Shown here: positions 6,678-50,251 of the stretch, piece after piece
Position numbering within the stretch: the first letter of the stretch is position 1
Layout of the letters: each line of letters starts with the position of its first letter
Origin: a virus
Virus record (IMG/VR): IMGVR_UViG_3300028399_000005
Coordinates: 1 to 64,000 of that record
Length of the DNA stretch: 64,000 nt
Reading direction: 5' to 3' (one strand)
Position numbers and translations under genes: made by a program
The notes under the pieces: generated by a model
Told to the model about the DNA's origin: nothing
What the model saw: only the letters and a program-made list of their open reading frames with translations
The model's database searches: none

Positions 6678-7123
6678 GGCTCTTGGACAACTTCGTGTTG
6701 CGGTTCGTCGCCCTCGACAAGTTCTCCGACAGCATGATCAACGAGCAAGGCGTCAAGATCCACGCCTACTACCATGGCATCGAGATCGTGGACAAGGACA
6801 CCATGGGCTCGATCTACCCCGTGATCAAGAACGGCGTCGTCGTGGCTTACGCCATGAAGCGCGTGCGGGTCTTCGTCCGCTTCTACGTCCCGTTCTCGCC
6901 CGTCGCAAGCGACACGTTTGCCTACGAACGATTGCGCCGAGAACGGTCGGAAGGAGCTCTAACCAAACTAATGGCTTTCCTCGTCGAGAACGCCGACGAG
7001 ATCGTCGAAAAAGCCAGCAAGCCAGTCGTGCGGGAAAGCCTCGTGTTGCTGTCCGTCGTCCCCGACAACGACTACTTGCTCGAGTACGACCCAGAAAAAG
7101 ACGAGGTGGCAGAGGATGAGTAG
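6674..7123 (+). CDS. hypothetical protein
   Basis: ATGA coupling to thyX. Confidence 0.7.
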   Translation: MRLLDNFVLRFVALDKFSDSMINEQGVKIHAYYHGIEIVDKDTMGSIYPVIKNGVVVAYAMKRVRVFVRFYVPFSPVASDTFAYERLRRERSEGALTKLMAFLVENADEIVEKASKPVVRESLVLLSVVPDNDYLLEYDPEKDEVAEDE

Positions 7124-12390: not shown

Positions 12391-12515
12391 CAATATAATA
12401 TACGTAAGGGTATTATATAAAGGTTGTGGTAAAGGTAAGAAGCGAAACGAAAATATGGACAGGCTTGCTAAAAAAGAAAAAAAGAAGAAGGAAGGCGGAG
12501 AAGGCGCTGGGCGCT

Positions 12516-12836
12516 TTACGCGACCCTTTCGAGAAGACCGAGGTCGTACCCGATCTCCTCGAGCTCCTCGACGGAGTTTATGACAACCCCTTCGGGGAGC
12601 CTTCTCTTGAGCTTGAAGACCAGGGCTTTGTCCCCAGTCTCCATGGCTATTTGGAGACGATTCGCTGGGACTTCGATGCCCAGCAACTTCGTGAGGGCTT
12701 CCGCCGTGGCAACATGCCCGACGGCGCTCTCAAACCCGCCCGCAAGGAGCTCACGGGCGTCTTCCACGCTTATGGGGGAGAACTTGTATTCTCCCCAAGC
12801 GGTGATGATCGGGGCGTTCAACACGTAGATCGTCAT
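12516..12836 (-). CDS. acrIII-1: DUF1874 / STIV B116-like protein, AcrIII-1 family cA4 ring nuclease (anti-CRISPR)
   Basis: IYVLNA, FESAVGHVATA (catalytic GH), ANR, GDKALVFKLKRRLPEG are family hallmarks; 106 aa. Confidence 0.85.
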   Translation of the reverse strand: MTIYVLNAPIITAWGEYKFSPISVEDARELLAGGFESAVGHVATAEALTKLLGIEVPANRLQIAMETGDKALVFKLKRRLPEGVVINSVEELEEIGYDLGLLERVA

Positions 12837-12937
12837 CAATACATATTATGTGATGATATTATATAAAGGTTGTGGTGCACGAATAGTAGTTATAACGGCG
12901 GGAATAGTTCAAAAACGAATCGGAGCAATCAAAGCAT

Positions 12938-27731: not shown

Positions 27732-27852
27732 GGGGCAGTAGCTCAGCCTGGGAGAGCGCGCGAGTAAAGCCCCCTTGCGCGCGCCACTCTGCGCACAGCA
27801 GATTGAGGGGGCCTCAGTGTAGTCGCGGGTTCAAATCCCGCCTGCTCCACCA
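27732..27852 (+). tRNA. tRNA-Ala-like RNA with a greatly expanded anticodon arm (121 nt)
   Basis: Acceptor GGGGCAG/CTGCTCC with G3.U70, A73 and encoded CCA; D arm GCTC/GAGC; T arm GCGGG-TTCAAAT-CCCGC; upstream TATA and downstream T-run. Confidence 0.85.
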
Positions 27853-41862: not shown

Positions 41863-43842
41863 ATGAACGAACAAGACGAATCATTCGACCCAGAGAAAGT
41901 AGTAGCGAAAATTCTCGATCTTGCGCCGAAAACAGTCCTCATCATGGGAAAGATCGGCGAGGACGAAAGAAAGGCGCTTGAGCGCCACATCAAGGAAGAA
42001 TTCAAGAAGAGCGCCGAAAAGGAGAACGCCCACGCAGAACTACTCGGTTTCGCGGACTACTACGGACGGCACCAAAAATACGAAAAAACGAAGAAAGCAT
42101 TCGGCGACCGAATCGTCGAAGCCCTTGACAGAATCGCAACAAACCAAATAGTCGACATTCTCGAAGTGTACCGCCCATTGTTGCTCTCGAAATATTACAA
42201 CTTTACGCACTTGAACAAAAAAATAGACGGGAGGATCGCAGACATTCTCGTCCCCACGAATTTCGAGCGAGTCTTTCTATCTACACTGTTCGTCGGCGAA
42301 ATAACGCACTTGGCAACAGGCGCCGAGCTCGTGGGGAGTATTTCCCGTCCAGACCTCGAATTCAAGGCGAAAGAAAGCGATTTCGACGTTCGGGCGTTTT
42401 CCACGCACGAACTCACGTTCGCAACGGCGGTCGGTTTCACGCTCGAAAAAGTGTTCAAGCGTTTGCTCGCACGCGTTACGCAAACGGCGTATGAGAACGA
42501 CGTGCCAAACGTCGTGGCGACCGTTGATCGGTTCGTAGCGTCGATTAAAGGACGAGAACTCTTGCTCGAGCTCGTCGAAGACCCTGGCTTCGACTTGCAA
42601 GTGCGGGAATGGGAGAGCCTCGGAATGCTCGATGAGTCAGTCATCGATCCTCGAGAAGCCGTCCGCGAGCACGCCCTTCAAGAACCGACGGCGTCTTTCC
42701 GAACGTTGTTCTTGCCCTTCGACTCAAGGTTTTTCTCCCGCGAGAACAAACAACGCATGCTCGACCTCTTCGAGCATGATAAAGACGGTGCTGTCCTCGT
42801 CGGCGATAGCTACGTGGCCTTGCGCGTGCTTGCGGATGACGCTACCATTAACAAGAGCTTCGTCCAGACCATTTTCATCGATCCGCCGTTCAACAAGCCG
42901 AACGAGGCGAACTACAAGTATAGCGTCAAGATCGGCGACGACGTCTGGATTGCCATGCTCCGCTCAAGGCTTCGGCTCGCAAGGGAGCTCTTGCACGAGA
43001 CGGGCTCGATCTTCGTTCGATGCGACTATGAGGGCTCTCACTACGTCCACCTTCTTCTCGACGAGATTTTCGGCAAGAAGAATTTCCGCAACGAAATCGT
43101 CGTCAAGCGCTCGAACCGCATCAAGAGCCCGACGTCTCGCTTCTTGTCGTGGCACGACGTTGTGTTCTTCTATGCGAAAAGAGCGGACAGAGCTTTTTTC
43201 AAAGAGCTTGTCGTCGATGAAGAGGCACGCAATGGCTGGCGGGGAATGGACATGCCAGGCGATTCTTACGAGGTCGTCCCCTCGGGGCTCGAGTCATTAT
43301 TCGAGCCGTGGATGCTTGAGAAAGACTCTTATGAACAGACAGTTACTCGTGCGAGGCTGTTCTTCGGAAAACCTATCATGCCCCCGCCAGGGCGCAGATT
43401 CCCTTCCCAAGCAAAAATCAACGAAGAGATCGAGAAGGGCAATATTCGCTTTTCTCGCTCGGGGCGCCCGTTGATCCGCAAGCGTGGCTACAAGGTGCTT
43501 ACCGACGATTGGACGGACATTTTCGGCTACAAGAACCGCTTCGGGTTCACGACGGAGAACAGCGAGGAACTGCTACGACGCGTGATCATGGCAACTTCGA
43601 AGGAAGAGGACGTTGTGCTCGACTTTTTCGCTGGTAGCGGGACGACCCTTGCCGTGGCGCACAAGCTCGGGCGAAAATGGGTCGGCGTAGAAATCAACGA
43701 CCACGCTTTCGAGGTGCTCATCCCCCGCATGAAGAAAGTGCTGTTCTACGACGAAGGAGAGATCAGCTCGTTGAAAGAAGTCAGAGAAAAATACAACAAA
43801 CGCCGAGCTGGCGGGGTCTTCTACTATTACTCTTATGAATAG
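41863..43842 (+). CDS. large adenine methyltransferase (type III Mod-like, beta class)
   Basis: IDPPFN, DEIFGKKNFRNEI, VLDFFAGSGTT; no Res gene adjacent. Confidence 0.9.
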   Translation: MNEQDESFDPEKVVAKILDLAPKTVLIMGKIGEDERKALERHIKEEFKKSAEKENAHAELLGFADYYGRHQKYEKTKKAFGDRIVEALDRIATNQIVDILEVYRPLLLSKYYNFTHLNKKIDGRIADILVPTNFERVFLSTLFVGEITHLATGAELVGSISRPDLEFKAKESDFDVRAFSTHELTFATAVGFTLEKVFKRLLARVTQTAYENDVPNVVATVDRFVASIKGRELLLELVEDPGFDLQVREWESLGMLDESVIDPREAVREHALQEPTASFRTLFLPFDSRFFSRENKQRMLDLFEHDKDGAVLVGDSYVALRVLADDATINKSFVQTIFIDPPFNKPNEANYKYSVKIGDDVWIAMLRSRLRLARELLHETGSIFVRCDYEGSHYVHLLLDEIFGKKNFRNEIVVKRSNRIKSPTSRFLSWHDVVFFYAKRADRAFFKELVVDEEARNGWRGMDMPGDSYEVVPSGLESLFEPWMLEKDSYEQTVTRARLFFGKPIMPPPGRRFPSQAKINEEIEKGNIRFSRSGRPLIRKRGYKVLTDDWTDIFGYKNRFGFTTENSEELLRRVIMATSKEEDVVLDFFAGSGTTLAVAHKLGRKWVGVEINDHAFEVLIPRMKKVLFYDEGEISSLKEVREKYNKRRAGGVFYYYSYE

Positions 43843-44600
43843 CGCTTTTTGGGTTTGCCGACCACTCGGTCTCGCCATAAAAACAGCCCGCTCGTTTCCT
43901 TGCTCCCGAAGTGGTTGAACTCGCTGTCGAAAAACGTCGAGAGACGGGCGTTCTCCCATCCACCGTTGATTCTGGCGAGCTTTTCATAGACGGACGGCAC
44001 GGGGACATCGTGCTCGACAATGTAGGCCCAGACGTCTTTCGCCGTCCACTCGGCGATCGGGAACGCCGTGTCCGTGAACCCGCTCTTTTTCGGTTCTATC
44101 CACGTTCCCGTGCGTCGCTTCGCCTCGGCGATCCGCGCTCGGCGCTTCTGGGACTCTTGGGATCGTAGACCGAGGAAACAGACGTCCCAGCCGTGGCGTT
44201 TCACGGCTTCCGACAAACGGGGGAAAAACGGCGATTTAGCGATGTGTGATTCTCTTGCGGACGGTTTATCGCCCCCAGGCCTTTTCTCGTAACTATGGCG
44301 AGAAAAAGGGGCAATCTGGTCAATTCCTTGCAAGATCTCTTTCTCGATCCAACGGGGGATCAACCATTCGCCGTAGTCCCAGTGGCGAACCCAGACGTCC
44401 CTCTTGTACTGGACGACGAGATGGAGCATCGCCATGGAGTCCTTCCCGCCAGAGACGGCGACATAGGGGTTTTGATAGCTCGCCAAGACTCGGCGAATGA
44501 ACGAGCGGGACGTGGCTACCTTGCGCCGATACTCCGACGTGTTCGTGTGTAGGAGAAAGCCAGCGATGACGGGTTTCGGCATGAATTTGGACGGTTTCAT
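43833..44600 (-). CDS. cysH: CysH/PAPS-reductase-like protein of a type IV-B CRISPR locus
   Basis: PP-loop VSGGKDS, GLRSQES, PIAEWTAKDVWAY; ATG at 44600 overlaps the csf3 stop. Confidence 0.88.
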   Translation of the reverse strand: MKPSKFMPKPVIAGFLLHTNTSEYRRKVATSRSFIRRVLASYQNPYVAVSGGKDSMAMLHLVVQYKRDVWVRHWDYGEWLIPRWIEKEILQGIDQIAPFSRHSYEKRPGGDKPSARESHIAKSPFFPRLSEAVKRHGWDVCFLGLRSQESQKRRARIAEAKRRTGTWIEPKKSGFTDTAFPIAEWTAKDVWAYIVEHDVPVPSVYEKLARINGGWENARLSTFFDSEFNHFGSKETSGLFLWRDRVVGKPKKRYS

Positions 44601-45391
44601 TGCGCAAGACCTATTTTTTGCTTTACTTGGGCGGAGAGCTCGCACTTTGCGCCGACGGGGACGCACGCGTCGATGTTTCGTCTGTCCCAGTACGGCGGTT
44701 TCCAGGCGAGGTAGGCGAAGTCGTCGTATTCGTCGCAGTAGCGCGTCGGGATGGGTCGTAGCGCTTCTTTTGTTTTCGGGTTCCAGAAGCTCGCCTTGTC
44801 GGGGTTTGGCTTGATCTCGACATGGCTGACTTCGCCGAAGCCGTAGGCGGTCTTTTTCCCGAGCCCCGTAACGTGTGCTATGAGCGATAGCAAGGAGTAG
44901 GGCTTCGCCTCGACGAAGACGTCGGCGTATCGGGCGGAAATGTAGGGGATTCTGATCGAGTAGTTCTTGAACGTCCCAGAGCCGAGGCTGATCTTGCTCT
45001 TCTTCCCGCCGATCTTGTGGGCGTCTGGCTCGTGGAAGCGTTTGTAAACATACTCGATGTTCGCCCGCTCCTCGACGTTGATGAGCTTCCCGTCGGCGTC
45101 CTTGAATAGGATGACAGAGGAGTGATAGAAGTACGTTTGGCGGATTGGCATGGGCAACGCTCGGACGCGCTTTCCGAGGGGGTCGTTCGAGGGGAGCATG
45201 TAGTAGTCTTGCCCGAGGGTGAGGCGGAGCAACATGTGCGCCACGAGCCCGTCGAAGTTGATCCACGGGTGCGTGATCATGACGGGCGCTTTCAAGTGGA
45301 ACCGCACGAGGACGTGCGCCCACTCTTCGCCTTTGAGCGTGGCGTAGTACTCCGTCGGCGTGTCCGCGAGCAAGTATTGCCGTAGGAACAT
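44597..45391 (-). CDS. csf3: type IV Cas5-like subunit
   Basis: FDGLVA, Gly loop GLGKKTAYGFG, RPIP, PPYW. Confidence 0.85.
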   Translation of the reverse strand: MFLRQYLLADTPTEYYATLKGEEWAHVLVRFHLKAPVMITHPWINFDGLVAHMLLRLTLGQDYYMLPSNDPLGKRVRALPMPIRQTYFYHSSVILFKDADGKLINVEERANIEYVYKRFHEPDAHKIGGKKSKISLGSGTFKNYSIRIPYISARYADVFVEAKPYSLLSLIAHVTGLGKKTAYGFGEVSHVEIKPNPDKASFWNPKTKEALRPIPTRYCDEYDDFAYLAWKPPYWDRRNIDACVPVGAKCELSAQVKQKIGLAQ

Positions 45392-45395
45392 AGCG

Positions 45396-46286
45396 TCATC
45401 CCTTCTTCTTGAACGATGAGAAATCGATTTTCTGGGCATCAATCGCCTGCAAGAGCGCCAAGATGTCGTCTTGATTTTCTTCGACGAATCTTAGATACGT
45501 TTCTTCTTTTCCGAGTGCGCTCAAGGCAGTCTTGTCGTAGTCTGGACGCAACGCGCCGAGCCCGATGCTTGACTTCCCGCCGACGTAGCAATTGTTCTCC
45601 CAGATTCGGAACGCTCTTCGGAAGAACGCTTCTTCGACGGGCGTGGGGTCTTCGAGGACGAAAGCGTGCGTCAGCCTCGTGCCAGGGATCAAGACCTCGT
45701 ATTCGACGAGCATTTGTTGTGCTTGTTCGCCTTCGTCCCGCTCGGCTCTGAGCTCGTCTTTGCGGGTCTGGTAAGTGTCGCTCATGAGCTCGTGGAAACT
45801 GAATTCGGCGCCCCTAACCGTTGAAGGGTCGAACGTGATCCCTTCGAGCTCCTTGCAGATCGGGAAAGCGTTCATGACCTTGAGCTTTCCCGTGAACGCT
45901 TGGTTGAGGAAGGACGAGCCGAAAACACTAATGGGGGGCAAGAGGTATCGGATGGTCTTCCTCGCTTCGAGGTTGAGCGTCCCGCTGTCCTTCGAGGACA
46001 CTTTCTCGAGGTTCCCGCCCGAGTAGAAAAAGTGGTAGAGTCTGGCGGTCTCGAATCGGTGTCTTTGGCCCTCTCTGTAGCCCACGAGGTCGAGGAAGTC
46101 CTTCATGACGAGGCGTCGCAGGCGCCCTCTGATTGCATTTCCGCTGATGTAGGGCACTTCTTGGATCCCCTTGTTCGTGATCATTTCGATTCTTCGGAAC
46201 CCGATCGTGGATCCCGTTTTTTCGTTCCCGCCGTGGTGGACGGGGGAAAGAGCTGTCAATATTCCGCTGATTTTAATTGTCTTCAT
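45396..46286 (-). CDS. csf2: type IV Cas7-like backbone subunit
   Basis: ALSPVHHG, VPYISGNAIRGRLRR, SVFG, GGKSSIGLG. Confidence 0.9.
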   Translation of the reverse strand: MKTIKISGILTALSPVHHGGNEKTGSTIGFRRIEMITNKGIQEVPYISGNAIRGRLRRLVMKDFLDLVGYREGQRHRFETARLYHFFYSGGNLEKVSSKDSGTLNLEARKTIRYLLPPISVFGSSFLNQAFTGKLKVMNAFPICKELEGITFDPSTVRGAEFSFHELMSDTYQTRKDELRAERDEGEQAQQMLVEYEVLIPGTRLTHAFVLEDPTPVEEAFFRRAFRIWENNCYVGGKSSIGLGALRPDYDKTALSALGKEETYLRFVEENQDDILALLQAIDAQKIDFSSFKKKG

Positions 46287-46312
46287 TCTTTTTTTCTCAA
46301 CTCCTTTTGTTC

Positions 46313-46648
46313 TTACTTTTCATGGCACGAGCAATAGCAACCGAAGGCTTTGTAGCTCACGTTGCATCGCTCGGTGCATCTTCTGTCCGAGTGATGGCGA
46401 AACTCGAACTTTTTCTTGAGCGTCCACTTGACCTTTCTCGGCGAGTAGCCTACCGAGAAAAGCCCTTCGTGGGTCTTTTCTGTGGCAACGATCTCTTGGA
46501 AAAGCTCGTATTTCTCGAGCTCGCCGACGAGCGAGGAGACAACTTCCCGCAAGCGGTTCGTGATCTCGCTCGCCACGATTTGGGCGAGGAATACAAGATC
46601 GTCCCGTGATTCTTCGCCGTGCATTGTTTCTTCCGTTTCTTCCGTCAT
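46313..46648 (-). CDS. hypothetical protein inside the csf operon
   Basis: ATGA-coupled to the cas11-like gene; C-terminal Cys/His cluster. Confidence 0.6.
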   Translation of the reverse strand: MTEETEETMHGEESRDDLVFLAQIVASEITNRLREVVSSLVGELEKYELFQEIVATEKTHEGLFSVGYSPRKVKWTLKKKFEFRHHSDRRCTERCNVSYKAFGCYCSCHEK

Positions 46649-47073
46649 TCTTCATCATCCTTTGCTTTTCGTTGCTTTTCCTTCCGCTTCTCGCGTAGCA
46701 ACTGCGAGTATCTTCGAGCGAGCATCACGCAGAGCTGGGACTCCGTGCGGACGGTGTCGAGGAACTCGTCGGCGTATTTCTCCGCCTCGAGGATGAGCTC
46801 TGGCTCATCATGGAGCGCTTGGATGCTCAGCTGGTTGCAGAGCTTGTTCACGAACTTTGCAACGGTCGGCTTGCGGGAAGAGTTCTTGATTCTGTGCTCG
46901 AAAATGTCCGTGGCGATCTTGGACGTGCTCATCTGGTGCCAGTTCACTTGGTAGTAGACCCTTCCGAGAAGGGCGGAGATGAGCTCGTACACTCGCTTTT
47001 TTCTTGGCGAGACCCACGAGAGGTCTTGGCCTGGCAATATTTCTTCGAGGCTAAAAGTAGATTTCTGCGCCAT
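46645..47073 (-). CDS. cas11: type IV-B small subunit (Cas11-like)
   Basis: Helical 142 aa between csf1 and csf2; FVNKLCNQLSI. Confidence 0.65.
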   Translation of the reverse strand: MAQKSTFSLEEILPGQDLSWVSPRKKRVYELISALLGRVYYQVNWHQMSTSKIATDIFEHRIKNSSRKPTVAKFVNKLCNQLSIQALHDEPELILEAEKYADEFLDTVRTESQLCVMLARRYSQLLREKRKEKQRKAKDDEE

Positions 47074-47824
47074 AGACTTCGCCTTCTTCTTCTTTCTTTC
47101 GTTTTTTCGATTGCTTCTCGGGCTTCTTAGTATCTTTGCGGAGCGTCTTCATGGTCGTGAGCTTCTTCGGCGTATCCGTGCACTTGACGACGAGCTCCCA
47201 GGCGGGGTTCCCCGCGAACTTCTTCGCCTCGTAGTAGTGCTGTATCGCCCCGACCTCGACGAGCGTCTCGATGATCGAGCTGTTGGTCTCGAGCGTTTCG
47301 AGGCGCTTCTTCCCGAAAAATGGCATGAGCGCGTCGACGAGTCCCGTGATTTTCTCGTAGCTTCGTGGCGTGAACCGTGCGACGTCTTCTTCGAAGATCA
47401 CGACGAATCTGTTGATTGACCCCTCGTTCGACGGCGTGTTGATGGCGAACGGGTTCACGATCCATCCGTGCTTCTTGAAGCTCTTCGTTACGAAGATTGC
47501 GAAGGGCTCGTTTCGAGCGAGCGCTTCGGTGAGGACGTCCCGAAACTCGTTGAACTTGAACGCCTTGAACCTTGCGGGGGAAACAACCCAGTTCGTTTTT
47601 CGGACTGTCGCTTCTTTGAGCGCCCCCGCACAAAAAACGCAGAGCCCGTGGCCCGCTTTCAAGTGCTGGAATCCCGTGAAATTGCCCGAGACTACTCTCT
47701 TGATGTCCACGAGCTCGTCGACGGTCTCCATGCAAATATAGCACCTACCGTGGTGCTTTTCGCCCGAGATTGGCTCGATCATTTTTGCTTGTGCGAGCAG
47801 GCGTGGTATTGTGAGAATCATCAA
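47051..47824 (-). CDS. csf1: type IV large subunit (Cas8-like)
   Basis: N-terminal CYIC...LCVFC Zn finger, PFAIF...KKHGW; first gene of the operon. Confidence 0.8.
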   Translation of the reverse strand: MMILTIPRLLAQAKMIEPISGEKHHGRCYICMETVDELVDIKRVVSGNFTGFQHLKAGHGLCVFCAGALKEATVRKTNWVVSPARFKAFKFNEFRDVLTEALARNEPFAIFVTKSFKKHGWIVNPFAINTPSNEGSINRFVVIFEEDVARFTPRSYEKITGLVDALMPFFGKKRLETLETNSSIIETLVEVGAIQHYYEAKKFAGNPAWELVVKCTDTPKKLTTMKTLRKDTKKPEKQSKKRKKEEEGEVYGAEIYF

Positions 47825-48158
47825 GCAATCGACGATTTATCGAGAATCGCTGTATAATAGCCTTGCTCGCCGTTATAACGATACTTTTCTTTCTTTAGGT
47901 GAACTTGTTATAACGAGGCGAAAATCGTTTAAGAATCGGGCGGAAAACATACAAATATGAAGATCGAAAAACTATCAAGATACTTTAGAAAAACAGAAGC
48001 GCGCCAGAGACCCATGAGCGGTTTTCAGAAGCACGTTCGCGCGTTCCGTCGTTTCCGATTTCGTGCGGTCATGTCTTCATAGGCGAAGTAGGCAAAGAAA
48101 GGAAAAAAGGGCGGAGCAGAGCTCCGAAAGGCAAAGGCGGAGAGGAAGCGGTAGGCGC

Positions 48159-48290
48159 TCAGAGCTCGAGGTTGTCGAAGAATTCGCTAAATAAGACCGC
48201 TAAGAGCTCATCGTCGAACTCTGACAGCGCCTTCGCTTCGTAAAGCTTTGAAGAATTGTCGTCTTTTGAGAAGTTGTCGTTCTCGCTCAT
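48159..48290 (-). CDS. 43-aa acidic peptide (leader cassette 1)
   Basis: ATG after class I promoter and structured leader. Confidence 0.6.
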   Translation of the reverse strand: MSENDNFSKDDNSSKLYEAKALSEFDDELLAVLFSEFFDNLEL

Positions 48291-48344
48291 GGTACATCCC
48301 TGTCGTCGGGCGGGTCTCCTTCCCCCTTGCGGGGGTAACCCACC
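48291..48344 (-). promoter_or_regulatory. conserved structured 5' leader, copy 1
   Basis: GGTGGGT-TA-CCCCC-GCAA-GGGGG-AAGGAG-ACCCGCC-CGACGAC. Confidence 0.75.
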
Positions 48345-48550
48345 AATATAATATAGGAAGGAGAAATATAAAAAGGTTGTGGTAAAGGTAATCAATATGT
48401 TTGTATTTTTCTGATAAAAAATAAGAGAAACTTGGCAGGCGGTTTATTACAAAAAAATGACAAAAAATAGCGCGACGGAAGCGGTAGCAAAGAAAGAAAA
48501 GAAGGGGCGAAGCAAAGCTCCGCAAAGTTAGGAAGGCAAAGTTGAAGGGC

Positions 48551-48958
48551 TTATAAGTCCAGTTTTCTACCGTATGCTTCGAGGAGCGCCGTAAGCTCCA
48601 AATCTATTAGGCCTCTCTCATTTGAGAGGAAGCCCAATAGATTCAAGGTATGGCGGGCGTCTAAGAAGTCGTCCACCTTCGATCGGAAGGCGATCCGAAG
48701 GAAGGTATAGACGATGTGGTAGGCGAGGTCTCGGGCGGTCATGCCCTTCGTCTCATAGACCGCTTGTGCGAGCTCGAAGGCTCTCACAATGGTCTCGTTC
48801 ATCTCGGCTTCGAACTCTTCTGGATTCATGCGTTGCGATAGCGCAGACGCAATGAAGTCCTGGAAGAGCCCGTCTATTTCGTTCAAAGCGTGCTCGTCTA
48901 TCGGGGCGTCGCCCGATAATGGACGGACACGCTTAGCGTCGAACGTTTCGTCTGCCAT
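48551..48958 (-). CDS. acidic helical protein (leader cassette 2)
   Basis: ATG after class I promoter and structured leader. Confidence 0.75.
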   Translation of the reverse strand: MADETFDAKRVRPLSGDAPIDEHALNEIDGLFQDFIASALSQRMNPEEFEAEMNETIVRAFELAQAVYETKGMTARDLAYHIVYTFLRIAFRSKVDDFLDARHTLNLLGFLSNERGLIDLELTALLEAYGRKLDL

Positions 48959-49013
48959 AGTCCATCTCTCCGTCGTCGGGTGGTGTTCCTTCCCCGCATG
49001 GGGGTGCACCACC
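48959..49013 (-). promoter_or_regulatory. conserved structured 5' leader, copy 2
   Basis: GGTGGTG-CA-CCCC-CATGC-GGGG-AAGGAA-CACCACC-CGACGAC. Confidence 0.75.
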
Positions 49014-49094
49014 AATATAATATAGGAAGTGGTAATATATAAACTTTGTGGGAAATTGGTAGATAATTGCACTCTAAAAGTGTTGCGAGGAGCA

Positions 49095-49190
49095 AGAAAA
49101 CGAATCTCGCCTGTCCGCCCGCTGGGGGTGGCGGGTGTTTACGTCAATCAAACGTCTATTCTTTTAGACAAGCGACTGATTGGGGTACTA
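49095..49190 (-). ncRNA. candidate pseudoknotted small RNA
   Basis: TATA-like element ~25 nt upstream; CAATCAG/TTGATTG, TCGCTTGTC/GACAGGCGA and CCCGC/GCGGG pairings. Confidence 0.4.
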
Positions 49191-49336
49191 TTTACGCCAA
49201 TTTGAAAAGTTGCTAATTAATAAAGGAATTAATTAACAAAACTTGCAGGGAATTCTGCGTGCGGAAAAATATAATCATTAAAAAACGGCGATCGATCGAA
49301 TCAAGGAAAGAAGAAGGCGAAGAAAGGCGGGGTTTG

Positions 49337-49738
49337 TCAAAGGTTGTTATAAACTATCTCGAGCGCTCTTCGGATTGTGAGTGTCTTCGGTGGGCGCTTG
49401 TAAGGGGCGTAGCCGACGTCCCATACGAGCGTCCCTCGAATGCTAACCCGTGCACTCCCCTCGAAGAGGAGCTCGTCGTCTGGACTGTACGCCTTGACAA
49501 CGATGTCGTGCACGGTAACGCTGTATTCCGTGCCAGGCCATGGTCTGCCCTTGTAGCGCTCGACTTCTACAAGGGCGATCTCGAGCCGTACCGAGCCCTT
49601 GTTCGAGTCCACGAAAAGCGTGAGCTCGTCAAGGGCGTCGTAGTCGTCGCGTAATACGAGGGCTACCCCCTCGAAGCCGTTCCCAGCCACGAAGGAGTAG
49701 CCCTTCAACTTAGAGTTATAGGCTAACTTCATTCTCAT
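49337..49738 (-). CDS. beta-rich hypothetical protein (leader cassette 3)
   Basis: ATG after class I promoter and structured leader. Confidence 0.75.
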   Translation of the reverse strand: MRMKLAYNSKLKGYSFVAGNGFEGVALVLRDDYDALDELTLFVDSNKGSVRLEIALVEVERYKGRPWPGTEYSVTVHDIVVKAYSPDDELLFEGSARVSIRGTLVWDVGYAPYKRPPKTLTIRRALEIVYNNL

Positions 49739-49790
49739 AGTATCACCGTCGCCGAGCGAGTCTCCTTCCCCCATAAGGGGGTAACCCGCT
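49739..49790 (-). promoter_or_regulatory. conserved structured 5' leader, copy 3
   Basis: AGCGGGT-TA-CCCCC-TTAT-GGGGG-AAGGAG-ACTCGCT-CGGCGAC. Confidence 0.75.
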
Positions 49791-49894
49791 AATATAATAT
49801 ACGCAACGGTAATATATAAGTTTTGTGGGAATTTGGTTAGAAGATGCGTAAAAAATATGAAAAAAATGTGCAAAAATATGAAGCATAAATCATG

Positions 49895-50251
49895 CTAAGA
49901 ATGATGACGAACGCCTTGTTCGCGAAGGTCGTCGATGACCTCGGCAAGCATCTCTTGAGCCTCGTCGATGGTCGCAAGCATCCCTTCGAGGACGGCGAAC
50001 TCGTCGAGCTCGGGGTTCCCAGAAAAGACGCGAACCCAAGGAACGACGGGCATCATGACGAAATCGTCGTAGCGCAGAACTGCGATGACTTTCTCAGTCG
50101 TCTTGTCCTTGACCGTAGCGGTCTTCGCAGTGCGTTCGTACTCTATAATTACCCTGTCAAATTCCTCAACAGCATCGAGCGCTTGGTATATCCTATCTAT
50201 AACGACATTGCTAATGTCGAACGACGATTCTATATAGATCTGTTTCATCAT
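49895..50251 (-). CDS. acidic hypothetical protein (class I-like promoter)
   Basis: Leaderless start after a degenerate class I promoter. Confidence 0.7.
   Translation of the reverse strand: MMKQIYIESSFDISNVVIDRIYQALDAVEEFDRVIIEYERTAKTATVKDKTTEKVIAVLRYDDFVMMPVVPWVRVFSGNPELDEFAVLEGMLATIDEAQEMLAEVIDDLREQGVRHHS

Follow-up and report, generated by a model that had tools for sequence, protein, structure and literature searches.

Upstream of csf1 in the window analysed here, which comprises bases 1-64000 of the IMG/VR virus record IMGVR_UViG_3300028399_000005, three small neighbouring genes on the minus strand are organised as three consecutive, self-contained units. Each unit runs in the same order, from a promoter of a type designated class I, through a hairpin of 35-36 nucleotides (nt), a CGRCGAC tail and a linker with a Shine-Dalgarno (SD)-like stretch, to an ATG, an open reading frame (ORF) unrelated to the other two and a T-rich 3' end. 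Promoter and leader together make up a 90-nt block that the three units have in common at 64-77% identity (repeat family D1). The first-pass annotation of this DNA had proposed a common promoter and leader RNA in front of three unrelated ORFs, and all of the features that it described are present on the minus strand. Its figure of about 53 nt for the leader agrees with the lengths that we measured from the first base of the outer stem (P1) of the hairpin to the base preceding the ATG, which are 54, 55 and 52 nt for units 1, 2 and 3 (48344-48291, 49013-48959 and 49790-49739, respectively). The parts of the units are given below from unit 3 to unit 1, where P2 is the inner stem of the hairpin, R1 is a covariance model built from all three units and R2 is one built from units 1 and 3.

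49792-49836, minus strand: unit 3 class I promoter (upstream box, TATA-like box and AT-rich proximal element), with a 39-nt geometry matching 9 other promoters
49755-49790, minus strand: unit 3 leader hairpin (P1 of 7 bp, internal loop UA/AAGGAG, P2 of 5 bp, P2 loop UUAU), 61.7 bits with model R1
49739-49754, minus strand: unit 3 tail CGGCGAC (49754-49748) and linker with SD-like GGTGAT, from the sequence
49337-49738, minus strand: unit 3 ORF of 133 amino acids (aa), ATG at 49738, beta-rich, no family
49015-49059, minus strand: unit 2 class I promoter, with the 39-nt geometry
48979-49013, minus strand: unit 2 leader hairpin (P1 of 7 bp, internal loop CA/AAGGAA, P2 of 4 bp), found with model R2, built without unit 2
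48959-48978, minus strand: unit 2 tail CGACGAC (48978-48972) and linker with SD-like GGAG, from the sequence
48551-48958, minus strand: unit 2 ORF of 135 aa, ATG at 48958, predicted five-helix bundle, no family
48490-48523, minus strand: unit 2 terminator-like hairpin (stem 48523-48507) and T/C-rich run, repeat family D11, common with unit 1
48346-48390, minus strand: unit 1 class I promoter, with the 39-nt geometry
48309-48344, minus strand: unit 1 leader hairpin (P1 of 7 bp, internal loop UA/AAGGAG, P2 of 5 bp, P2 loop GCAA), 62.9 bits with model R1
48291-48308, minus strand: unit 1 tail CGACGAC (48308-48302) and linker with SD-like GGGAT, from the sequence
48159-48290, minus strand: unit 1 ORF of 43 aa, ATG at 48290, very acidic, no family
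48095-48126, minus strand: unit 1 terminator-like hairpin (stem 48126-48112) and T-rich run, repeat families D6 and D11

The 3' ends of units 1 and 2, where the annotation had seen a hairpin with a U-rich trailer, are homologous hairpin-plus-T-run sites (families D6 and D11), each of the two stems being followed by a T-rich run, and unit 3 ends in a T/C-rich stretch. Because a promoter and a terminator are present in each of them, the units are cassette-like. An 11-nt word, CTACCGCTTCC (minus strand), occurs in the 3' regions of units 1 and 2, at 48138-48150 and 48478-48488, and lies on opposite sides of the terminator hairpins in the two units.

A hairpin with a covarying outer stem

The two helices of the leader hairpin enclose an asymmetric internal loop. 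The arms of P1 are GGTGGGT/ACCCGCC in unit 1, GGTGGTG/CACCACC in unit 2 and AGCGGGT/ACTCGCT in unit 3, exactly the arms in which compensatory changes had been noticed at the outset, and they are paired in 21 of 21 cells, with a change on both sides at four of the seven positions, on one side only at one position, and none at the remaining two. The first pair is among those that covary (G-C, G-C and A-U in units 1 to 3). Between P1 and P2 the internal loop reads UA/AAGGAG, CA/AAGGAA and UA/AAGGAG (5' side/3' side), and P2 itself is a C-run paired with a G-run and closed by the loops GCAA, AUGC and UUAU. The annotation had set a variable P2 loop against a fixed internal loop; all four positions of the P2 loop do vary, while the internal loop is nearly rather than strictly fixed (YA/AAGGAR).

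The pairing does not depend on a hand-made alignment. In a structure-aware alignment from model R2, into which unit 2 had not entered as input, 35 of 35 cells are paired, four pairs show changes on both sides and P2 is invariant. When the 3' partner was slid by 1-3 columns as a control, 46-63% of cells were paired and no both-sided change was left. When the observed numbers of substitutions were placed at random in both arms in a Monte Carlo simulation, all seven pairs survived in 0.98% of cases for the step from unit 1 to unit 2 and in 1.2% for that from unit 1 to unit 3. Model R2 detects unit 2 at 36.8 bits (E = 8.9e-8) and, with filters off, finds no further match at E ≤ 0.01 in the 64-kb window; model R1 scores the three units at 50.7-62.9 bits, and its next match reaches 14.1.

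Two of the 21 P1 cells, one in unit 1 and one in unit 3, are G-U pairs. On the opposite strand they would become A-C, leaving six of seven pairs there, and since G-U is valid in the sense strand and A-C is a mismatch in the other, the element is constrained on the sense strand. The half-sites of P1 differ among the units and yet stay complementary, which fits an RNA helix and not a DNA-binding protein that reads sequence. The leader thus contains a genuine structured element, and its compensatory changes support a conserved secondary structure. A stretch of 22 nt inside csf1 (47563-47584) matches the P2 region of unit 1 at 82% identity, with an exact 11-mer in common (family D9); about 0.1 such matches would be expected by chance, and it is probably a coincidence.

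Constraint is distributed unevenly over the 90-nt block. In comparisons between units, 7-16 of 46 promoter positions and 2-5 of 7 positions in the P1 arms are different, and all four positions of the P2 loop are variable; the loop AAGGAR differs at 0-1 of 6 positions, the tail (CGACGAC in units 1 and 2, CGGCGAC in unit 3) at 0-1 of 7, and neither A9 nor the P2 stems differ at all. If P1 is free to change as long as it stays paired, then it may be regarded as a scaffold, and the near-invariance of loop, P2, tail and A9 beside it and beside the free P2 loop points to recognition by some factor. A reading of the leader as a conserved peptide was rejected: unit 2 is without one G of P2, so that the same conserved letters (AAGGAR and the tail) fall in another frame. 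Exact complements of the loop core, as would mark an RNA partner acting in trans within the virus, occur only at the hairpins themselves; with one mismatch allowed, the complement is found at two unrelated places in the virus. Duplex energies of the leader with two tRNA-like RNAs lie within about 1 standard deviation of those of shuffles, and these comparisons revealed no RNA partner within the virus.

Between tail and ATG, the linker of 9-13 nt carries GGGAT, GGAG or GGTGAT in units 1, 2 and 3, placing an SD-like stretch 3-9 nt ahead of the AUG. GGTGA and AGGTG rank among the commonest 5-mers just upstream of starts in this virus, so the linker carries the ribosome-binding signal that is usual for this virus. 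The hairpin is predicted to be the minimum-energy structure still at 75 °C and to have an internal loop that is about 80-90% unpaired. Between 37 and 75 °C the tail is predicted to be 66-89% unpaired in units 1 and 2 and just 30-41% in unit 3, and between 37 and 90 °C the SD-like stretch is 38-85% and the AUG 41-86% unpaired.

Where the transcript begins is suggested by the promoter. Ten promoters in the genome have the identical 39-nt geometry, and in seven of them the ATG follows directly on the last promoter base; the other three belong to the units described here. Looser promoter matches add four leaderless cases, in agreement with the initial observation that class I genes are for the most part leaderless. 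In the three units, the first base of P1 occupies the place where the leaderless genes have their ATG, and a sigma-70-type reading of the promoter gives the same start base. The hairpin is therefore most likely flush with the 5' end of the transcript, with the start deduced from promoter geometry: the first P1 base stands where seven leaderless promoters have the ATG, and the covariation of pair 1 is meaningful only if that base is transcribed.

Distribution of the leader and of its genes

Among the sources searched, the element appears to be confined to this virus and to one relative that is about 90% identical. With Rfam 15, the sole match in the window at gathering score is a tRNA at 27732-27849, and in 48050-49900 at E ≤ 10 there are four weak matches, none of them over a leader; no Rfam family matches the leaders, as would be expected of the new RNA motif that had been proposed. 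Within its own genome the core pattern occurs three times, always in these units, with 0 control matches, and model R1 finds no additional copy in the final 20 kb of the record. Over all sources, R1 gives two sub-threshold partial matches. The strict core pattern has 0 matches in IMG/VR; with a relaxed core, one of 80 loci examined there (of 84 stretches) has an outer stem of at least 6, and this locus is AT-rich and promoterless. In a set with one genome per prokaryote species, the strict pattern gives 19 matches scattered over G+C-rich bacteria and two archaea, of which one has a possible outer stem, which is the level of chance.

Core matches are also present in 69 of 401 sampled genomes of one archaeal phylum, where the multi-copy cases represent a different, dispersed element (L048-L067; genomes G351, G098, G149 and G321). 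That element has the core CCCC-N3-GGGG-AAGGAG with a 7-bp stem CTTCCCC/GGGGAAG, a CGAC before it and a second hairpin, GCACC..GGTGC, after it. It reaches up to 9 copies per genome, with three within 300 bp in G098, and its architecture is unlike that of the viral leader.

The relative comes from a second vent run, in which contigs are about 80-99% identical to the virus over 27 of 30 bins. Proteins 93% and 92% identical to those of units 2 and 3, respectively, are encoded on a 2,374-bp ENA contig. Since the proteins called on it start within the leaders, part of each leader can be compared through its translation: 18 leader-encoded residues of unit 2 and the first 10 of unit 3 are identical. 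By comparison, the opening 25 codons of the unit 2 ORF contain eight changes, and the SD linker of unit 3 differs by one change and one insertion. That the leader-encoded residues are identical while neighbouring codons and linker change lends modest support to purifying selection on the hairpin and tail. Among the differences listed between the two viruses is also a 3-nt, frame-keeping deletion at 48250, which the relative carries in its unit 1 ORF.

The proteins behind the leaders offer few clues of their own. The three ORFs are mutually unrelated (BLASTP E 0.67) and have no match in Pfam, NCBIfam or PADLOC; PHROGs gives a single sub-threshold match, for the unit 3 ORF (E 0.031), and an Atlas search with the unit ORFs returned nothing usable. 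IMG/VR single-protein searches found no relatives of the unit 2 or unit 3 ORFs. The model of the unit 2 protein is a five-helix bundle (pLDDT 66), for which there is no match among PDB folds at E ≤ 0.001. The unit 3 model is poor (pLDDT 48), and residues 68-128 of this protein have weak matches to single blades of large WD40 proteins (E 3e-7 to 6e-4, with many stretches per target), so that the protein may have a lone beta-propeller-blade-like fold. On present comparisons, the three accessory genes appear to have in common a new, very narrowly distributed structured 5' leader.

The virus and its type IV-B operon

The whole record is linear, 83,942 bp long and about 77% complete. Its products include a family B DNA polymerase, a primase-polymerase-like protein, an RFC-like clamp-loader subunit (Rep_fac_C domain), a nuclease with ERCC4 and helix-hairpin-helix and a Cas4-like nuclease, as well as a prohead protease, a terminase-like protein and a portal-MuF fusion. 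The replication gene set is of the archaeal/eukaryotic kind, and the DNA is present in two runs, both labelled hydrothermal vent metagenome, whereas no RNA run is listed for the stretch with the units; for the first two of these reasons the virus is likely a tailed virus of an archaeon, and probably a thermophilic one. A bacterial host is a possible alternative, because the sigma-70-type reading of the promoter puts the start on the identical base. The virus has no DNA match in a phage collection, its portal has remote matches only (≤ 29% identity), and Csf2 and a putative capsid protein, like the two unit proteins above, drew no relatives in the IMG/VR single-protein searches. A 146-aa ORF at 12426-12866 (plus strand) has no Pfam family at E ≤ 0.001. 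Close to its end (G000:C1:82200-82440), the record has a 7-nt unit, GTAGAAA on the minus strand, repeated in long tandem arrays.

Downstream of unit 1 lies the operon:

43833-47824, minus strand: type IV-B operon with csf1, cas11, a 112-aa ORF, csf2, csf3 and a cysH-like gene (context, outside the element)

PADLOC identifies Csf1 (9.5e-21), Cas11 (9.2e-24), Csf2 (4e-65) and Csf3 (1.7e-43), and the 112-aa ORF has no family. What resembles a fusion in a 496-aa ORF is more plausibly a pair of genes, with Csf3 (Cas5) in another frame at 44597-45442 (minus strand), followed by the CysH-like protein at 43833-44603 (minus strand), which is about 255 aa long and has a PAPS-reductase domain. By its gene content, this is a type IV-B operon that is complete and has no array, in a tailed virus that is probably archaeal. 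Its promoter region (47825-47960) is apparently its own and of a different type, with a palindrome, CGTTATAACG, at 47871-47880 in a reading by eye, and unit 1 closes with its terminator-like site ahead of the operon.

Possible modes of action

Our preferred reading, to which we assign a tentative probability of roughly 0.45, is that the leader is a new, lineage-specific, cis-acting element that is read by one factor and places the three accessory genes under a common post-transcriptional control. A class I promoter, which normally produces leaderless mRNAs, would in three adjacent accessory-gene units be followed by a leader of 52-55 nt, the first 35-36 nt of which would fold into a two-helix hairpin starting at the first transcribed base. 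P1, free to change if it remains paired, and P2 would act as a scaffold that presents the fixed, purine-rich, asymmetric loop YA/AAGGAR; the fixed CGRCGAC tail, single-stranded in this model, would come next, and then the SD-like stretch 3-9 nt before the AUG. One trans-acting factor, of viral or host origin and most likely a protein, would recognise the surface formed by loop, P2 stem and tail, and would give the three mRNAs a common fate in translation rate, stability or both, unlike that of the leaderless class I genes. Both this factor, with its identity, and the direction of its effect are what we infer from the pattern of constraint. Protein binding and a role as a translational operator, as the first-pass annotation envisaged, are likewise a conjecture built on predicted structure, and a simple mechanism in which an operator blocks the ribosome is not evident, since the predicted hairpin leaves both the SD-like stretch and the AUG open.

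This exposure of the start region weighs against our reading, and so do several other points. No partner of the leader has been identified, and the position of the transcription start depends on promoter geometry. The family comprises three paralogs and one ortholog of about 90% identity, which makes for thin covariation statistics; in a shuffle control that is coarse, having three rows, the observed values were reached in 16 of 500 shuffles. The folding energies compared with shuffles (z of -1.7, -0.9 and -1.7) are not significant, as G+C-rich shuffles fold well too. In addition, the identity among the units could in part reflect recent duplication or gene conversion and not selection.

Leaders that are switched by a protein have a precedent in archaea. 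In the accessible text of two reports (PMC5539422; PMC6298567), k-turn hairpins bound by L7Ae stand in the 5' leaders of archaeal l7ae mRNAs, a k-turn being defined as a bulge, usually of 3 nt, followed by tandem G:A pairs (PMC6298567). As described there, these leaders resemble the viral one in having a short stem-loop near the SD in an archaeal 5' leader and an asymmetric, purine-rich internal loop between two helices, and operation as a protein-operated translational switch would be further common ground. The viral loop is, however, 2+6 and not 2+5, tandem G:A/A:G pairs are impossible since 2n is U or C, and the viral hairpin, unlike the form given in those accounts, is G+C-rich, predicted to be stable without protein and separate from the SD. 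We tried the k-turn as an identity for the loop and rejected it: if P2 is taken as the C helix, a G:A pair is available for 1b:1n, but 2b:2n would be A:U in units 1 and 3 or A:C in unit 2, and one extra purine before P1 gives the 2+6 loop, which places it outside the definition. The coat-protein operators of RNA phages, lambda boxB and HIV TAR are small hairpins in which a fixed bulge or internal loop, with the stems as a scaffold, is read by one protein, viral or host, and TAR-like elements start at the first transcribed base. The viral leader has the fixed internal loop, the scaffold stems and probably, as in the TAR-like case, a start at the first transcribed base; unlike these elements, it occurs in three copies on different genes, probably in an archaeal host, and has no sequence or family relation to them.

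If the preferred reading is correct, the leader would be of interest for several reasons. Structured cis-regulatory leaders are barely documented for archaeal viruses, and in a literature search of incomplete coverage we found no paper on a shared structured leader in an archaeal virus. One promoter type would be used in two modes within one virus, leaderless or led by a hairpin with an SD-like stretch, which offers a natural and compact system, in an archaeon that is probably thermophilic, for studying how initiation in these two modes, or mRNA decay, is balanced. With a motif of 43 nt, whose scaffold and recognition parts are cleanly separable, testing should be easy, and the element could possibly serve as a regulatory part.

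The alternative that ranks second, and which we consider unlikely, requires no dedicated factor. The leader would be a passive 5' module in which the flush hairpin protects the mRNA from decay that depends on the 5' end, and the exposed, purine-rich loop might also offer the small ribosomal subunit an SD-like standby site. Hairpins flush with the 5' end are classically known for stabilising mRNA in bacteria. Like them, the viral hairpin begins at the inferred first base and lies upstream of an SD-like stretch that, together with the AUG, stays open in predicted folds; it is predicted to be stable at 75 °C, and its loop resembles part of the SD-type motifs found upstream of virus genes. Pairing alone suffices for a stabiliser, however, and bacterial stabiliser hairpins have no sequence constraint, so that the fixed A9, P2, AAGGA and CGRCGAC beside a varying P1 would go unexplained. 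As to a standby site, the last loop base (R) weakens the SD-like match in unit 2, and an internal loop of 6 nt is presumably a poor place for an intermolecular helix of 5-6 bp. Two further explanations were weighed. An element acting at the level of DNA, be it a repressor operator at +1 to +36 or a recombination site of folded single-stranded DNA through which ORF cassettes are exchanged, would account for an inverted repeat right at the transcription start and for three units with the same ends and unrelated ORFs. A protein that reads DNA sequence does not need half-sites that differ and remain complementary, as those of P1 do, the two G-U pairs are valid on the sense strand only, and no recombinase was recognised near the units among the ORFs scanned; we regard such an element as very improbable. 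Least probable of all in our view is a decoy, an RNA anti-CRISPR whose hairpins, as mimics of host repeats, would sequester Cas6, Cas5 or Cas7 of the host in the early phase of infection. According to the accessible text of PMC10651486, viral solitary repeat units lie immediately downstream of promoters and often beside anti-CRISPR genes, and the viral leader resembles the units described there in that it is a hairpin close to a promoter, has a short 3' flank that is conserved and is present in several copies beside cas-like genes; its three copies also stand behind a strong, repeated promoter. Unlike the solitary units as presented in that source, it leads protein-coding mRNAs, every copy being fused to an ORF with an SD-like stretch, and its covarying outer stem extends past the would-be repeat, which is not a repeat feature. 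No array of the core pattern was found in the 401 genomes of the archaeal phylum or in the virus.

The proximity of the type IV-B operon suggests another role, which the first-pass annotation had raised as a repeat-like handle for the Csf complex. The hairpin with a tail of 7-8 nt would serve as a stand-alone CRISPR repeat and be the RNA partner that an array-less type IV-B system specifically binds: the tail, at the hairpin's foot, would be the docking site of Csf3, and Csf2 and Cas11 would polymerise along the RNA that follows, over the SD-like stretch and start codon of the three mRNAs, making the complex a programmable translational repressor or an RNA chaperone of viral accessory genes. 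In the 3' part of class 1 repeats, a stem-loop likewise precedes a fixed tail of about 8 nt, a layout to which that of the leader bears a formal likeness, and the units are 270 nt upstream of a complete csf1-cas11-csf2-csf3-cysH operon. In the accessible text of PMC7937560, heterogeneous RNA was associated with a type IV-B complex and the RNA recognised by Csf3 was not yet known, and in that of 10.1101/2023.08.24.554615 another archaeal virus has type IV-B with a two-repeat mini-array. If the leader were such a partner, it would open type IV-B function to experiment, a prospect that the evidence at hand does not favour. Adjacency is the sole link, the units have their own promoters and terminators while the promoter region of the operon appears to be different, no Cas6-like gene was recognised, and the element is found in mRNA leaders and not in a spacer-repeat context.

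A link to type IV-B should also be visible in related systems. From 170 relatives of Csf2 at E ≤ 0.001 we obtained loci with flanks, 10 from IMG/VR (Csf2 identity 38-46%) and 9 from JGI metagenomes (37-54%), which with one duplicate amount to 18 distinct loci. Model R1 finds no copy in these or in the rest of the viral genome, its one result in the 18 being a sub-threshold partial match (L017, 11.9 bits, E 3.9), which is one of the two sub-threshold matches mentioned above; the others listed are in the rest of the virus. Scans for the promoter and loop motif found none of the 18 with the leader architecture or promoter, and a descriptor of the full architecture has no match in the 10 IMG/VR loci. 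With neither covariance model nor motif scans showing linkage to type IV-B, the proposal of a Csf handle falls back on adjacency, and we consider it improbable, if somewhat less so than the DNA element or the decoy. Nor do comparable repeated hairpins of other sequence lie beside csf1: an exact-seed scan for close-spaced repeats in the 18 loci returned just a CRISPR array at the far end of one of them, and an exact-seed scan for dispersed repeats in the five closest loci gave no such hairpin. The array (L020, 69-230) has repeats of about 30 nt spaced 65-67 nt apart, is about 6 kb from csf2, and its repeat is unrelated to the hairpin. In one of these five, the metagenome locus L018, two copies of a different small hairpin flank the type IV-B locus 6 kb apart, at 635-665 and 6694-6724. 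Behind each of them come an SD-like stretch and an ATG, the two loops are different, and the hairpin may be that element's own repeated leader.

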